Source: Escherichia phage slur05
Direction: 5' to 3' (one strand)
DNA length: 43,900 nt
Sequence record: NC_028901.1
Shown: positions 36,648 through 43,887 of the stretch, piece after piece
Layout: each line of letters begins with the position of its first letter
Numbering within the stretch: the first letter of the stretch is position 1
Notes under the pieces: generated by a model
What the model saw: the letters and a program-made list of their open reading frames with translations, nothing else
Database searches by the model: none
What the model was told of the DNA's origin: nothing
Translations under genes and position numbers: made by a program

Positions 36648-36746
36648 GAAACTACACCTAAAACTGCATGGTGTCAAATCCTTTGGATATTGAAACGGGC
36701 GCGCACGCGTGTAATAATAATTCCCGTCTCATTGTCTCTTATTGGT

Positions 36747-36782
36747 TAGCGCCGTCGCATTTTGCCTCGGCGCTTTTTTTTT
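36747..36782 (+). terminator. Plus-strand intrinsic terminator inside the divergent regulatory region
   Basis: Stem AGCGCCG/CGGCGCT followed by T10; no annotated plus-strand gene upstream. Confidence 0.5.
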
Positions 36783-36793
36783 GAAATTAGTTG

Positions 36794-36823
36794 TTGACAC
36801 CCATCCTGCAACCAATCTATCAT
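36794..36823 (+). promoter_or_regulatory. Sigma70-like promoter TTGACA-18-TATCAT for the charged-protein operon
   Basis: Consensus -35 TTGACA 36794-36799, -10 TATCAT 36818-36823; spacer contains TGCAACCAAT. Confidence 0.55.
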
Positions 36824-37019
36824 TCACTCCGTCGACAGGATGCAGGACGCAAACTGGAGAGGGGCAACGCAGGGGCCGGATCGAAGTGTCAGGATTCCCA
36901 ACCGTGATTATATAACCAGGTCCACTACCCGAACGGGAGAACGCGCAACCTGGCAATATGTTAAGGCCACCGACGAAGTTAACTGCCGACACCTAAACTT
37001 AACCAATCGGAGATATACC

Positions 37020-37538
37020 ATGTTTGAGCAAATCGTAAACCTGATCACTCGCGGCGTAGTAGCACTGGAAGTCATCGCTAAGCATTATGAAACCGTTGGC
37101 GCTGCCGTTGGTAAGCAGGACGACAAGAAGCCGTCTAAGGCCAAAAAAGAAGTTGTCGAAGATGGCGACGATGAAGCCGAAGACGAAAAACCGGCTAAAG
37201 CTAAAAAAGCACCGGCGAAGGGTAAGGCCAAAAAAGAAGTCGTAGAAGATGACGACGACGAAGACGCCGAAGACGAAAAACCGGCTAAGGCTAAAAAAGC
37301 ACCGGCGAAAGGCAAAGGTAAGAAAGATGCCGATCCGCTGGCAGAGATGCGCGACGAAATCAAACAGTATGCCGCGATTATCGCCGGTGGTGATGACGAC
37401 GATGCTAACGACGAATTTGACGACCTGCTGGAAGCGTTCGAGATCAAATCAATCGCCAAGCTGGAAGACGACGACGTCGAAGACTTCCACAAAGATTTAA
37501 AAGAAATCGTCGAGACTTATTTCGAACTGGAAGACTAA
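37020..37538 (+). CDS. Charged repetitive protein (Lys/Ala-rich repeats alternating with acidic blocks)
   Basis: GGAGA RBS; promoter TTGACA-18-TATCAT upstream; internal repeat KKEVVEDxDDExEDEKPAKAKKAPAKGK x2; acidic C-terminal half. Confidence 0.6.
   Translation: MFEQIVNLITRGVVALEVIAKHYETVGAAVGKQDDKKPSKAKKEVVEDGDDEAEDEKPAKAKKAPAKGKAKKEVVEDDDDEDAEDEKPAKAKKAPAKGKGKKDADPLAEMRDEIKQYAAIIAGGDDDDANDEFDDLLEAFEIKSIAKLEDDDVEDFHKDLKEIVETYFELED
37140..37300 (+). repeat. Direct ~75 bp tandem repeat inside the charged-protein gene
   Basis: AAAAAAGAAGT(T/C)GT(C/A)GAAGATG...GAAGACGAAAAACCGGCTAA(A/G)GCTAAAAAAGCACCGGCGAA occurs twice. Confidence 0.6.
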
Positions 37539-37542
37539 TATC

Positions 37543-37668
37543 ATGGACTATGAAATGAGAATCATGCTCGATTTCATAGCAGAAAATTGGGCGGCATTCA
37601 CCGCCTTCTGCGAAGAAAGAGGCGACGACCCGGACGAGGTTTATAAACAACTCGGCGGTGAAGATTAA
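37543..37668 (+). CDS. Hypothetical small acidic protein (41 aa)
   Basis: ATG 4 nt after the upstream stop; followed by intrinsic terminator 37676-37704. Confidence 0.35.
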   Translation: MDYEMRIMLDFIAENWAAFTAFCEERGDDPDEVYKQLGGED

Positions 37669-37675
37669 TATTATC

Positions 37676-37704
37676 CGGCCCGCATATTAGCGGGCCTCTT
37701 TTTA
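37676..37704 (+). terminator. Rho-independent terminator after the charged-protein operon
   Basis: Stem GGCCCGC/GCGGGCC, loop ATATTA, then TCTTTTT. Confidence 0.65.
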
Positions 37705-37716
37705 GAGGACGAGACA

Positions 37717-37968
37717 ATGGCACGCTTCACGCTAATCGAGGCGGTGGACTCCCGCGACCAACGCCCATATTATTGGCTATTCGAACGCATCGGCAATTTT
37801 CGGTCGCGCGTGGCTGTAATAGACAAACGCCGCAACACCCCCGCGCAAATTAAGCGCACCACCTTTACTAATCCCGACTTTTATATTTGGGCCGATTCCA
37901 ATCTGGAATATGTTCGCTTCGCCGTTGCATCAGAAGCAAGAACAATTGACCGCTGGGAGACAAAATAA
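37717..37968 (+). CDS. Hypothetical protein (83 aa)
   Basis: GAGGA RBS (GAGGACGAGACAATG); basic protein. Confidence 0.45.
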   Translation: MARFTLIEAVDSRDQRPYYWLFERIGNFRSRVAVIDKRRNTPAQIKRTTFTNPDFYIWADSNLEYVRFAVASEARTIDRWETK

Positions 37969-38147
37969 TGAAATTCTTCGTCCTGGCAACATGCCACAAA
38001 TTAGACGACCATTGCTCTTTTATTGTTGAAAACACCAACGAAAGCAATTGCTTTGCGGACGCACAAAATGAAGTTAAGCGCCGCGGCGAAAAAGCGGGCA
38101 AGGCTAATGTGAAATATGTAATTGTCCAGTTTACACGGGTGGAATAA
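37968..38147 (+). CDS. Hypothetical small Cys/His-containing protein (59 aa)
   Basis: ATG overlaps the upstream stop; stop overlaps the downstream ATG (TAATG); below the 60 aa cutoff of the supplied ORF track. Confidence 0.35.
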   Translation: MKFFVLATCHKLDDHCSFIVENTNESNCFADAQNEVKRRGEKAGKANVKYVIVQFTRVE

Positions 38148-39577
38148 TGGCGATTAAACCAAAACGTAAAACGCAATCCGGTAGCAACACGGAGCATTCA
38201 TTACTCGGCCCGTCCGGGTCTAAAAAATGGATGGGTTGCCCCGCCGCCCTGGTGGTGGAAAAAGATATCCCGAACGAATCCGGGCAAGCGGCGATTAACG
38301 GTACGAGTATGCACACCGTATCTGAAGTCGTGCTCAACCGCATCATTGCCGGTGAGAAGATGATAACCGCGAAGACGTACAAAGGGTGCTACGTCGAGAA
38401 TGAAGGCAAGGGGCCAGTAAAGGCGCACCCGAAAGCGCCGAAAGGCGGCGTACTGGTCAACGACGACATGGTGAAACAGTGCGATGCGTACATCGACCAC
38501 TGGCGACCGCTCCTCGAAGTGGCAGAGTTTGTCCAGCTTGAGATGCGCGCCGATCTGACCCGCGTCCTTCACTCAGACTACGAGATCGACGGCAACCGGG
38601 TTAAGACGTTCGGTACTGCAGATATGGTCATGGTCATGAAGAAGACCGACGGTACGTACATGCTGATTGTTGGCGACCTGAAGACTGGGTGGCATAAGGT
38701 CGAGGCGAAAGAAAACAAACAGCTTATGTTGTATGCGCTGGGCCTGCTGCGCAAGCTGAAAACCATGTACGACATTACGACCGTGCGCCTGGTTATCTTC
38801 CAGCCGTATTGCGGCGGGGCGTCGGAGTGGGATATTTCGGTAGAAGCCCTGGAGATATTCGCGAAGTTTGCGTCCAAGCGTGCTATCGCCGCCCTGGAAG
38901 CGTACGCCCGCGGCAAAAAGGGACTAACCCGTGCCGACTTCCGACCGAGCGTTGATGCGTGTCAGTGGTGCAGATTTGCGGATCAGTGTAGCGCCCGCGC
39001 TAAGGCTGCAATCGACACGATGACCCCACCAACGGCAACAGACGAAGACCTGGGCGACGACGTGAGTATTGCGACAGAGGAAGAATGCGCCAATCACGAC
39101 CGCAATATGGCCCGCGAAGCCCGCAAAGCGGCACGACGTGCTAAGCGTGGCAAGAAAGAAGCGGCCCCCGGCGCTATGACCGCCGCAGAACTGCGCAAGG
39201 CTTATGAAGGCCTGGACGCAATGCGCCAGCACATCAAAGCTATCGAGTCCGCGGTATTCAAAGCGGTAATGGCGGGCGATGGCGAATCGCTGGGCCTCAA
39301 GATGGTTGCCGGTAAGGAAGGGATCCGTAAGTGGGCGGACGAGAGCGAAGTTATTGAAATCTTCACGAAGGCCCGGATCAAGCGCGATGTGATGTACAAA
39401 GAAACATTGCTCAGCCCTACGGATGCCGAGAAGGTACTGAAGGACGAAAAACCGAAAGTGTGGGCGAAGCTGTGTGATAAAATCACGCGCGCACCTGCCA
39501 AACCGGTGTTAGCACCAATCGACGACCCGCGCCCTGCGTGGTCGGAAGCTACTGACGAGGACTTAAGCAATGAATAA
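38147..39577 (+). CDS. PD-(D/E)XK nuclease, DUF2800/Cas4-like
   Basis: N-terminal LLGPSGSKKWMGCP, nuclease core (GTADMVMV...GDLKTGWHKVEAKENKQLMLYALG), Cas4-like Cys cluster (CQWCRFADQC); charged C-terminal extension. Confidence 0.6.
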   Translation: MAIKPKRKTQSGSNTEHSLLGPSGSKKWMGCPAALVVEKDIPNESGQAAINGTSMHTVSEVVLNRIIAGEKMITAKTYKGCYVENEGKGPVKAHPKAPKGGVLVNDDMVKQCDAYIDHWRPLLEVAEFVQLEMRADLTRVLHSDYEIDGNRVKTFGTADMVMVMKKTDGTYMLIVGDLKTGWHKVEAKENKQLMLYALGLLRKLKTMYDITTVRLVIFQPYCGGASEWDISVEALEIFAKFASKRAIAALEAYARGKKGLTRADFRPSVDACQWCRFADQCSARAKAAIDTMTPPTATDEDLGDDVSIATEEECANHDRNMAREARKAARRAKRGKKEAAPGAMTAAELRKAYEGLDAMRQHIKAIESAVFKAVMAGDGESLGLKMVAGKEGIRKWADESEVIEIFTKARIKRDVMYKETLLSPTDAEKVLKDEKPKVWAKLCDKITRAPAKPVLAPIDDPRPAWSEATDEDLSNE

Positions 39578-39837: not shown

Positions 39838-39902
39838 GGCAACCAAGCCGAACGGGGTGGCTTCCAATAACCCCGATGCATGTGAAAATGAGGAATTGGA
39901 AA

Positions 39903-40685
39903 ATGGCTAAAGTCAACCTGAAAAATGTGCGCGTATGCTTCCTGAAAATTTGGGAACGTGATACCCCTAAACAGGATGGACAAAAACCGGCATACCGTGC
40001 CGTGATTCTTCTGGATAAAGAAGATCCGCAGGTGGACAAAGTGGAAGCGGCAGCGCGCGCAGTGCTCACCGACAAGCTGAAATCCGAGAAGAATGCCGAT
40101 AAGTGGATGGACCGCCACTACGCCCAGGATTCTAAGGAATGCGCAGTGCGCGACGGCGACGAGCGCGATGAAGTAACCGAAGAATTCGAAGGCATGTTGT
40201 ATATCAACGCCAAATCGTTCAAACAACCAATCATTCAAACGTCACTCGGCGAGAAGCAGACTGAACAAGGTCTGACCATCGACGGCGACGAGATTGAAGG
40301 CCAGGAGATCTACTCCGGTTGTTATTGCAACGTGTCCCTTGATATTTGGGCGTGGAACAACACCAACGGCAAGGGACTCGGTGCTGGCTTGCTGGGTTTA
40401 CGCTTCCGTGATGACGGTGAAGCCTTCGGCGGTGGCGGGTCTTCATGCTCCGATGAAGACCTGGACAACGACGACGAAGACGAAGCACCGCGCAAGGCTA
40501 AGAAGTCAAAACGTCGTGATGACGATGATGAAGATGACAAGCCGCGCAAGTCCAAGAAATCCAAGCGCCGCGATGACGACGACGATGAGGAAGATGAAAA
40601 ACCTCGCAAACGTCGTAAGCCACGCGATGACGAAGATGAGGACGACGACGAAGACGAAGCACCACGCAAACGTCGCCGCCGTTAA
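39903..40685 (+). CDS. ssDNA-binding protein (DUF2815-like) with charged repeat tail
   Basis: GAGGA RBS; promoter TTGACC-17-TAAATT (39809-39837); partner of DUF2800 nucleases; C-terminus has DDDEDE/PRKxKKSKRR repeats; terminator 40704-40727. Confidence 0.5.
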   Translation: MAKVNLKNVRVCFLKIWERDTPKQDGQKPAYRAVILLDKEDPQVDKVEAAARAVLTDKLKSEKNADKWMDRHYAQDSKECAVRDGDERDEVTEEFEGMLYINAKSFKQPIIQTSLGEKQTEQGLTIDGDEIEGQEIYSGCYCNVSLDIWAWNNTNGKGLGAGLLGLRFRDDGEAFGGGGSSCSDEDLDNDDEDEAPRKAKKSKRRDDDDEDDKPRKSKKSKRRDDDDDEEDEKPRKRRKPRDDEDEDDDEDEAPRKRRRR

Positions 40686-40743: not shown

Positions 40744-40914
40744 ATGCGTATTAAAGCCAGCGAAGTAAAAGTCGGGATGAAAGTATGGTCCAAGCTACTG
40801 GGGGAATATTTCACAGTTGCCGAGATTCGCAACAACGGCGAAGAGATCACCCTGTCAGACGGCATCTTCTCCATGATCGGCAGCGCTGACGCCGTAGTGA
40901 GGATAAAGCAATGA
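40744..40914 (+). CDS. Hypothetical small protein (56 aa)
   Basis: ORF whose stop overlaps the polymerase ATG (ATGA); below the ORF-track cutoff. Confidence 0.35.
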   Translation: MRIKASEVKVGMKVWSKLLGEYFTVAEIRNNGEEITLSDGIFSMIGSADAVVRIKQ

Positions 40915-43398: not shown

Positions 43399-43673
43399 CA
43401 CCAGAAGGCAAGATTCAAAGTCACCTGATGCGACGGGTGAAAGAGGTGGGCGGATTCTGCCGCAAACTGGCATGGGAGGGGCGCGCAGGTGCGCCCGATC
43501 TGATTATCATCATCAACGGCAGAATAGTTTTCGTCGAAGTGAAGCGCCCCGGAGGCAAACCGAAGCCGCACCAGGTGCGCGAACATGAACGTATGGCCCG
43601 CCGCGGTGCTGACGTTCGCGTTATCGACACGATAGCCGACTGCGATTTATTGGTTGCTGAATTGGTCGCGTAA
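43395..43673 (+). CDS. VRR-NUC domain nuclease
   Basis: 92 aa with a PD-(D/E)XK core (GAPDLIIIINGRIVFVEVKRPGGKP), typical of VRR-NUC proteins. Confidence 0.65.
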   Translation: MTPEGKIQSHLMRRVKEVGGFCRKLAWEGRAGAPDLIIIINGRIVFVEVKRPGGKPKPHQVREHERMARRGADVRVIDTIADCDLLVAELVA

Positions 43674-43713
43674 CGGTATAGTGTGCAGGTTGGCACTATC
43701 GAGGATTTTAGAA

Positions 43714-43887
43714 ATGGTTGAAGAAAAACGTTGTAGTAATTGCGGATGCATCAAGCCGCTATCCCAGTTCCACAAGTACACCGGCAAGACTGCGCGAAGT
43801 CCAGACGGTCATCGGGCCGAGTGCAAGTCGTGCCGCAATAAAAAAGAGCGCGAACGGCAGCGCCGCTATCGCGCAGAACAAGAATAA
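43714..43887 (+). CDS. Small zinc-ribbon protein (57 aa)
   Basis: GAGGA RBS; four Cys in CxxC...CxxC arrangement (CSNCGC...CKSC); basic C-terminus. Confidence 0.4.
   Translation: MVEEKRCSNCGCIKPLSQFHKYTGKTARSPDGHRAECKSCRNKKERERQRRYRAEQE

Follow-up and report, generated by a model that had tools for sequence, protein, structure and literature searches.

What does a small, strongly acidic protein do whose gene opens the rightward operon of Escherichia phage slur05, and what is the stretch that separates this gene from its promoter? The question arises from a 172-amino-acid open reading frame (ORF) in sequence record NC_028901.1; the whole stretch of 43,900 nucleotides that was analysed is called the window below. 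The original prediction had described the product as the first protein behind a strong promoter, with two histone-H1-like repeats and an acidic C-terminal half, and had suggested a DNA mimic or an anti-defence factor. Our results indicate that the protein is a widespread, uncharacterised core accessory of a T7-like replication-recombination module. Our tentative preference is that it works there by nucleic-acid mimicry, its target being either an end-processing enzyme of the host or the exonuclease and SSB (the protein that binds single-stranded DNA) of the phage itself. The leader between promoter and gene contains a conserved structured RNA, which is the most novel item of the locus.

Slur05 shares this locus with other phages of Dhillonvirus, HK578-like virulent siphoviruses. 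Over positions 36700-37800 the identity is 100% with Escherichia phage slur06 (LN881731) and 90-97% with over 110 further Dhillonvirus genomes, and in all Dhillonvirus records the gene is named 'hypothetical protein'. The start of the operon is defined by the following elements:

36794-36823, + strand: near-consensus sigma-70 promoter, TTGACA-18-TATCAT, 11 of 12 consensus matches
37010-37013, + strand: Shine-Dalgarno sequence GGAG, seven bases 5' of the ATG, read from the sequence
37020-37538, + strand: gene of the acidic protein (PHROG 3127), 172 amino acids, ATG at 37020, TAA at 37536-37538

The reading frame had been called correctly, with ATG, TAA and GGAG all present. The claim that this is the first gene behind a strong promoter stands in part. 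It is the first ORF of the rightward operon, and the promoter is conserved across Dhillonvirus alignments and independently annotated at the equivalent place in the HK578 GenBank record. However, the gene does not follow the promoter directly, since a 196-nt leader, including the 183-nt structured RNA, intervenes.

Published proteomics of the Dhillonvirus EE09 shows that the gene is expressed. At 25 min CDS56 was among only four phage proteins detected in infected cells, the other three being CDS29 (annotated as capsid and scaffold protein), CDS40 and CDS61, and the 24 proteins found in cell-free lysates did not include CDS56 (PMC10673088). According to the GenBank record, EE09_56 is the orthologue of the gene studied here, called from an upstream ATG, and EE09_61 is the gp2.5-like SSB. 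Detection in infected cells and not in lysates indicates that the protein is real, abundant, intracellular and non-structural. A virion component was the outcome named beforehand as speaking against the original prediction, and the distribution of EE09_56 between cells and lysates is the opposite of it.

The protein matches PHROG 3127 ('unknown function') over its full length (E = 2.9e-53, residues 1-172 against profile positions 1-178 of 178), and among 5.8 billion proteins searched there were 166 homologues, all of them lacking an assigned function. Pfam and NCBIfam profile searches of the 172-residue protein gave nothing significant; DUF6669 produced weak matches only (best E = 0.017; 10 of 21 members), which are below threshold and were not relied on. 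Comparison of the C-terminal domain profile with 1.84 billion cluster representatives (50% identity) recovered only 39 clusters, all of them proteins of 120-212 amino acids in which the domain is always C-terminal. The gene is present in about 153 Dhillonvirus records, and tblastn with a distant member of the family from Salmonella phage FSL SP-038 leads to about 495 phage records, from Jerseyvirus, Kagunavirus, Shemara-like phages, Edwardsiella phage eiAU and one Pseudomonas phage. Many Jerseyvirus and Kagunavirus homologues bear the name '13.88 kDa late protein', the source of which is Salmonella phage MB78 (UniProt Q9T1Z8). Foldseek matched Q9T1Z8 (E = 5.5e-4) and other family members; no primary data behind the name were found in the accessible literature.

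Gene order is a further constant of the family. In every locus inspected (slur05, other family loci and Jerseyvirus MA12) the gene is the first of its operon and divergent from a helix-turn-helix gene. Downstream follow the genes of a DUF2800/PD-(D/E)XK exonuclease, a gp2.5-like SSB (Enc34_ssDNA-bd/DUF2815) and PolA, and a RepA-like primase-helicase is usually present too, on the divergent side. In MA12 the gene directly abuts the exonuclease gene. Two of these partners are located in the window as follows:

38147-39577, + strand: PD-(D/E)XK / DUF2800-type exonuclease, syntenic partner (PHROG 69; Pfam on orthologues)
39876-40685, + strand: gp2.5-like SSB (Enc34_ssDNA-bd), with tandem acid/base-block repeats in its tail

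The DUF2800/DUF2815/PolA module is far wider spread than the acidic protein family. The narrow distribution of the family points to an extra that suits certain hosts and not to an indispensable part of the replisome.

Which part of the protein is under constraint? Alignments, a structure prediction and a repeat search divide it into two conserved ends and a variable middle:

37020-37109, + strand: conserved N-terminal amphipathic helix, residues 1-30 (family alignments)
37110-37328, + strand: hypervariable linker of alternating acidic and basic blocks, residues 31-103, containing the tandem repeat
37136-37309, + strand: tandem duplication, 90 bp x2, two units of 30/31 residues, KKEVVED..EDEKPAKAKKAPAKGK (Tandem Repeats Finder)
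37329-37535, + strand: conserved acidic three-helix C-terminal domain, residues 104-172 (AlphaFold2, alignments)

Both ends are conserved down to about 30% overall identity, whereas the linker is variable. The N-terminal helix MFEQIVNLITRGVVALExIA is almost invariant in the alignments and in a tally of 116 homologues, with M1, L8, R11, V13, A15, E17 and A20 near-invariant across the family. The C-domain follows the consensus RDEIKxxAxxIxxGDxDDxxDEFDDLLExF...KLxDxDVEDFHxxLKxIVxxYxE. Its predicted acidity is confirmed, as 26 D/E residues face 6 K/R in the C-terminal 69 residues (net charge -20). In the AlphaFold2 model of the 172-residue protein, built on a 77-sequence alignment, residues 2-24 form a helix at low confidence (pLDDT, the per-residue confidence score, about 59), residues 26-101 are disordered (pLDDT below 50), and helices 106-123, 127-139 and 150-168 make a three-helix bundle (pLDDT 85-92). 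A second model, of the short-linker homologue P0098 with a broader alignment, again gave the N-terminal helix low confidence. A possible reading of the models is that the partner of this helix is a different molecule or a further copy of itself. A profile search of PDB sequences returned nothing at E <= 10, and among solved folds no likeness beyond generic helical bundles was seen.

The two near-identical repeats had been seen rightly. Tandem Repeats Finder reports a 90-bp unit in 2.0 copies with 90% matches (score 290), corresponding to residues 41-70 and 71-101. The two peptides share 27 of 30 residues, apart from one inserted Asp. G49D is a difference between them, and of the eight nucleotides at which the copies differ seven are synonymous changes, so the peptide of the duplicated unit has been preserved since duplication. 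Comparison of copy number across relatives, which the original prediction had proposed as a check, gave a range of 0-2 acidic blocks: none, one and two blocks occur in 7, 57 and 52 of the 116 homologues, respectively, and linker length runs from 17 to 81 residues. The linker always closes with a short basic stretch, even in the shortest homologues, and natural homologues of 115-124 residues (P0098, P0084, P0091) have lost the acidic linker blocks altogether. Since length and block number vary and such short homologues exist, the repeat is a recent 90-bp duplication within an indel-prone spacer and not the active part. The view of the histone-H1-like repeats as the conserved, functional part of the protein thus has to be given up: a linker that is nearly charge-neutral shrinks to 17 residues in nature.

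Tandem duplication is recurrent in this gene and not confined to the linker. In Escherichia phage KS_S9 (PP920551.1, 36112-36741; 209 amino acids) we had expected a third linker repeat; the extra length turned out to be an in-frame partial tandem duplication of the C-domain (KDADPLAEMRDEIKQYAAIIAGGDDDDANDEFDDLLD x2). A few distant homologues (P0122, P0123, P0131) have two complete C-domains.

An amphipathic, hydrophobic helix joined to a compact, strongly negative domain is unsuited to DNA binding and suited to protein binding, and the strong acidity of the domain suits it to basic nucleic-acid-binding surfaces. In lambda, gam adjoins bet and exo. In the T7 record the gene of gp5.9, a RecBCD inhibitor, lies like the gene studied here 5' of an exonuclease gene, gene 6. 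The conserved acidic domain together with this gp5.9-like position is why we favour a nucleic-acid-mimic accessory of the replication-recombination module. In such a mechanism the protein would be an abundant non-structural factor of a T7-like module (PD-(D/E)XK exonuclease, gp2.5-like SSB/annealase, PolA, RepA-like primase-helicase) and would behave as a two-ended adaptor. Its N-terminal helix would dock on a partner or self-associate, its acidic three-helix domain would bind a basic nucleic-acid-binding surface as a nucleic-acid mimic or competitor, and the disordered acid/base-block spacer between the ends would be free to vary in length. The target would most likely be a DNA-end-processing enzyme. 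Linear or recombining phage DNA might be shielded from a host nuclease-helicase such as RecBCD, or the phage's own exonuclease/SSB pair might be regulated. No other ORF in the early region of the window has a PHROG annotation as a RecBCD inhibitor.

Several points weigh against this mechanism. Aligned with T7 gp5.9 by hhalign, the C-domain profile reached a probability of 0.1%, and Gam, gp5.9, Ocr and ArdA have no sequence or fold likeness to the protein. The modelled fold of the C-domain is a generic one. RecBCD is present at few copies per cell, so high abundance is not needed for its titration. The target is deduced wholly from gene position and charge, and the real RecBCD inhibitor could be among the many small ORFs of the same phage that have no assigned function. 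Finally, if the name '13.88 kDa late protein' is based on timing, it does not fit protection in the immediate-early phase.

A dedicated anti-defence factor is the alternative closest to what had been predicted: an Ocr/ArdA-like DNA mimic, or another protein of this kind, made first and blocking restriction-modification (RM) or other immunity. The gene is indeed the first ORF behind a near-consensus promoter, the C-domain is very acidic, the protein is abundant and intracellular, and no library searched assigns it a function. However, Pfam gave no match to Ocr, ArdA or Gam and the fold search gave none either (PADLOC and dedicated anti-defence libraries were outside these searches), so the proposal finds no homology to known DNA-mimic or anti-defence families. 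Moreover, the gene belongs to the syntenic core of the replication-recombination module across genera, while anti-defence genes are typically accessory, patchy and in variable regions. All five Dhillonviruses of the BASEL collection carry the gene, yet the BASEL paper describes Dhillonviruses as comparatively sensitive to type I/II RM, in contrast to Queuovirinae (PMC8594841). Given this reported sensitivity of the carriers, and given that the gene is part of the core and keeps its place beside replication genes over wide phage distances, we consider anti-restriction of the Ocr type unlikely. The defence-related proteins described for Dhillonvirus also belong to other genes. Ksap1, the trigger of KpAvs2, is a protein of 74 amino acids encoded between methyltransferase and phosphatase genes; anti-Tmn, which only a subset of phages carry, is ORF35 of phiSMS22 and its C-domain consists of beta-sheet, the SM_S22 orthologue of our gene being CDS0050; the trigger of RAZR is the portal protein. 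No mutation in the studied protein is listed in the escaper-mutation tables of Stokar-Avihail et al., and the published text on retron Ec48 makes no statement on triggering by Dhillonviruses. On balance we regard an anti-defence role as quite improbable. It is possible that the acidic C-domain acts as a DNA mimic against a target other than restriction enzymes.

A different explanation starts from the linker and the SSB. In residues 31-103, 23 acidic residues stand against 22 basic ones, arranged as alternating blocks (net charge -1). The tail of the SSB (40451-40682, + strand) has a charge pattern of the same kind, with tandem acid/base modules DDDDEDDKPRKSKKSKRR in a 54-bp unit and the basic end RKRRRR, to which an acidic domain could bind. 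The number of these modules varies among phages: slur05, CS16 and EE09 have long tails, and welsh has only ...DEDEAPRKRRRR (DEDLDNDDEDEAPRKRRRR). The protein could then be a replisome hub or condensate scaffold, in which the blocky linker and the SSB tail concentrate replication and recombination proteins on phage DNA electrostatically, the lysine-rich blocks touching DNA and the terminal domains recruiting partners. The basic block retained just before the C-domain in the shortest homologues is in line with this, as are the presence of the EE09 orthologue and the SSB together among the abundant non-structural phage proteins of infected cells, and the conserved domains at both ends, which fit a 'stickers and spacer' design. 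Nevertheless we consider a scaffold unlikely. The complete loss of acidic blocks in the three short homologues named above makes repeat multivalency dispensable, and the DNA similarity of the two repeat sets is only 60-69%, which is explained by shared D/E/K codons. Far less probable is a histone-H1-like or nucleoid-associated protein whose Lys/Ala/Pro stretches would coat the DNA of phage or host. While KPAKAKKAPAKGK motifs resemble tails of the H1/AlgP/Hc1 type and the abundance is high, the protein has a net charge of -22 (isoelectric point 4.47), the K/A/P stretches do not extend far and come down to about 10 residues in some homologues, and what is conserved, a hydrophobic helix and an acidic domain, is in both cases ill suited to DNA binding. 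The linker is not a net-basic conserved K/A/P region as found in Hc1, AlgP and the HupB tail. Equally little can be said for a late or morphogenetic protein such as an assembly chaperone or scaffold. The MB78-derived name of the Jerseyvirus homologues and the listing of the protein among structural proteins in one paper, by annotation only, point that way; the name has spread by similarity, the gene sits in the replication module behind a sigma-70 promoter and far from the structural genes, and the EE09 distribution between infected cells and the virion/lysate proteome is the reverse of what such a role implies. The nucleic-acid-mimic accessory is our working explanation.

Two other small ORFs of the window touch on the subject of defence. 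A 77-amino-acid ORF at 43654-43887 (+ strand) matches PHROG 5558, 'Lar-like restriction alleviation protein' (E = 1.8e-17), and also endonuclease VII/HNH families; it is either a candidate anti-restriction gene or just a zinc-finger nuclease fragment. A 56-amino-acid ORF at 40744-40914 (+ strand), just 5' of the polymerase gene, matches PHROG 10102. The supplementary tables of Stokar-Avihail et al. list a '56 aa protein of unknown function' frameshifted in escapers of phages SECphi4/6/18, of which this ORF may, by size and position alone, be the counterpart.

What lies between the promoter and the gene? The interval from promoter to ATG is much better conserved than the coding sequence, and it is nearly identical in another locus (L004) whose protein is only about 62% identical. 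The conserved part of the interval is an RNA element:

36828-37010, + strand: conserved structured leader RNA, 183 nt (covariance model R1, 178 bits), in the 5' untranslated region in Dhillonvirus

The leader is matched by 178 phage records, about 160 of them at >=90% identity and 132 over >=80% of its length. In unrelated lineages the core is found again at 80-94% identity, in every case between genes and on the same strand as its neighbours: in Drexlerviridae Tempevirinae (tunus, slyngel, swan01, PHB17), Murrayvirus Lumpael, Sortsnevirus IME279 and HeidiAbel_Bas97. An alignment of eight sequences resolved invariant blocks separated by covarying helices. The covariance model R1 then finds one full-length copy per phage, at 160-187 bits, in 28 phage loci from at least five lineages, a set that was later extended with metagenome contigs. 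Support for the structure was measured on 24 distinct sequences against controls in which the pairing partner was slid. Paired cells amount to 93.9% as compared to 30-47% in the slid controls, compensatory changes occur in 19 of 38 pairs, and the covariation score is 0.346 as compared to <=0.065. Helices P1, P6 and P7 covary throughout, and invariant G-U pairs assign the RNA to the + strand. No Rfam 15 family matched the window at E <= 1 or the Lumpael copy at E <= 10, the RNA is absent from 5,426 complete E. coli genomes, and a literature search with strings of its sequence gave chance matches only.

The RNA and the protein are independent modules, because each occurs without the other; model R1 finds no copy in the Jersey-like loci that carry the protein family. 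The genes 3' of the RNA differ between lineages, all lack an assigned function, and no common regulated gene was found. Consensus scanning calls a full promoter directly 5' of the RNA in Dhillonvirus only, and elsewhere -10-like boxes are seen by eye. The idea that the far 5' end masks the Shine-Dalgarno sequence was judged by eye; such masking is not consistently conserved, and the idea was dropped. A further element bears on its action:

37677-37696, + strand: intrinsic terminator-like hairpin GGCCCGC..GCGGGCC with a T-run, also annotated in the CS16 record

This hairpin is located within the operon, 3' of a 41-amino-acid ORF and 5' of the exonuclease, SSB and polymerase genes, so transcription of the replication genes from the promoter at 36794 would need read-through or a further promoter. 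The order promoter, RNA, terminator holds in slur05 and partly in HeidiAbel; in tunus and Lumpael no + strand terminator was found within 2.5 kb 3' of the RNA. Antitermination of the put type thus fits slur05 and is not supported in tunus and Lumpael, which makes it a weak proposal overall. The RNA may be a cis-regulatory leader, that is, a riboswitch responding to a metabolite or an immune signal, or else an RNA acting as a modifier of RNA polymerase or of the ribosome; alternatively, it may be a stand-alone non-coding RNA.

The structured leader also bears on the start of the protein. The EE09_56, Opt212, Teewinot and PEC9 records annotate forms of 207-239 amino acids that begin at an upstream ATG and run through the region 36840-37019. 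In slur05 the in-frame ATG at 36840 would open a 232-amino-acid ORF. We rejected this long form (231-239 amino acids) as a real product, because the ATG at 36840 lies inside the structured RNA, has no Shine-Dalgarno sequence and is about 10 nt from the expected transcription start, because the extension is not conserved in homologue P0047, and because all distant homologues begin at the MFEQ/MLxK methionine. The N-terminal extension is almost certainly untranslated.

Further upstream, at 36690-36718 (+ strand) and just 5' of the main promoter, there is a promoter-like site TTGAAA-17-AATAAT with an upstream TG, followed after about 30 nt by a strong hairpin GCGCCG...CGGCGC with T9 (about 36750-36785). 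A short transcript, about 60 nt long, could arise from site and hairpin together, or the two could serve as an insulator between the divergent operons. In the EE09 record a coding sequence of 36 amino acids (EE09_55) is annotated in the equivalent intergenic interval, just 5' of the gene.

What would follow if these observations belong together? The locus would combine a new class of phage RNA of about 180 nt, shared horizontally among at least five lineages of virulent siphoviruses of enterobacteria, with a new bipartite family of acidic nucleic-acid mimics that protect or organise recombination-dependent replication; we regard this joint reading as a doubtful one, though worth stating. The two ends of such a mimic would be tethered by an evolvable charge-block spacer, which may act together with the similarly patterned SSB tail. 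The protein itself deserves attention as the product of a core, highly expressed gene without assigned function in Dhillonvirus, Jerseyvirus and Kagunavirus, genera that prevail among E. coli and Salmonella phage isolates and in therapy collections. Knowing its role, be it DNA-end protection, tuning of gp2.5-type recombination or a replication compartment, would fill a gap in the understanding of T7-like modules in siphoviruses, and the protein might be the source of a novel inhibitor for one of the host's DNA enzymes. The natural alleles with zero, one or two acidic blocks are a ready-made experiment on the length of a disordered linker. The leader RNA may matter more than the protein. It is supported by covariation, absent from Rfam, exchanged between unrelated virulent phages and absent from host genomes, which makes it a candidate new class of regulatory RNA, directly testable in the model coliphages of the BASEL collection. 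Errors in GenBank can also be corrected, namely the N-terminal extension through the RNA and the 'late protein' label.

Comparison with known systems helps to place both modules. The leader RNA resembles HK022 put RNA and riboswitch-type leaders in being a cis-encoded structured RNA, and in Dhillonvirus it is located, like put, just 3' of an early promoter and 5' of an operon with an internal terminator. It differs from these systems in its length of about 180 nt, its multi-helix fold, its lack of an Rfam match and the lack of downstream terminators in tunus and Lumpael, and it has no obvious structure that sequesters a ribosome-binding site or forms a terminator and no known ligand. With T7 Ocr (gp0.3) and ArdA the protein shares strong acidity and the position as first protein from an early promoter. 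Unlike them, it has no homology to this group, its folded acidic module makes up 69 of 172 residues, its gene is core to a replication module and its phages are reported as RM-sensitive. With T7 gp5.9 and lambda Gam, RecBCD inhibitors and DNA mimics, the likeness is this: small, acidic, all-helical and non-structural proteins, whose genes adjoin the phage's own exonuclease/annealase genes and are expressed before or with the replication genes. The differences are the absence of sequence similarity and the build of the protein, with a helix, a long charged disordered linker and a three-helix bundle. The acidic tails of T7 gp2.5 and bacterial SSB, which recruit proteins and mimic DNA, offer another parallel, namely an acidic segment in which aromatic and hydrophobic residues are conserved (DEFDDLLE, DVEDFH), in a gp2.5-type module; by this analogy, basic DNA-binding clefts of replication proteins could be engaged by the acidic segment. 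Here, however, the acidity resides in a folded three-helix domain that belongs to a separate protein, and the phage's own SSB tail ends basic, in RKRRRR. MB78 Q9T1Z8 is a true homologue, and in Jerseyvirus genomes the family's gene has the same position; the MB78 protein has 123 amino acids and a short linker, whereas the slur05 protein has a linker of two units.

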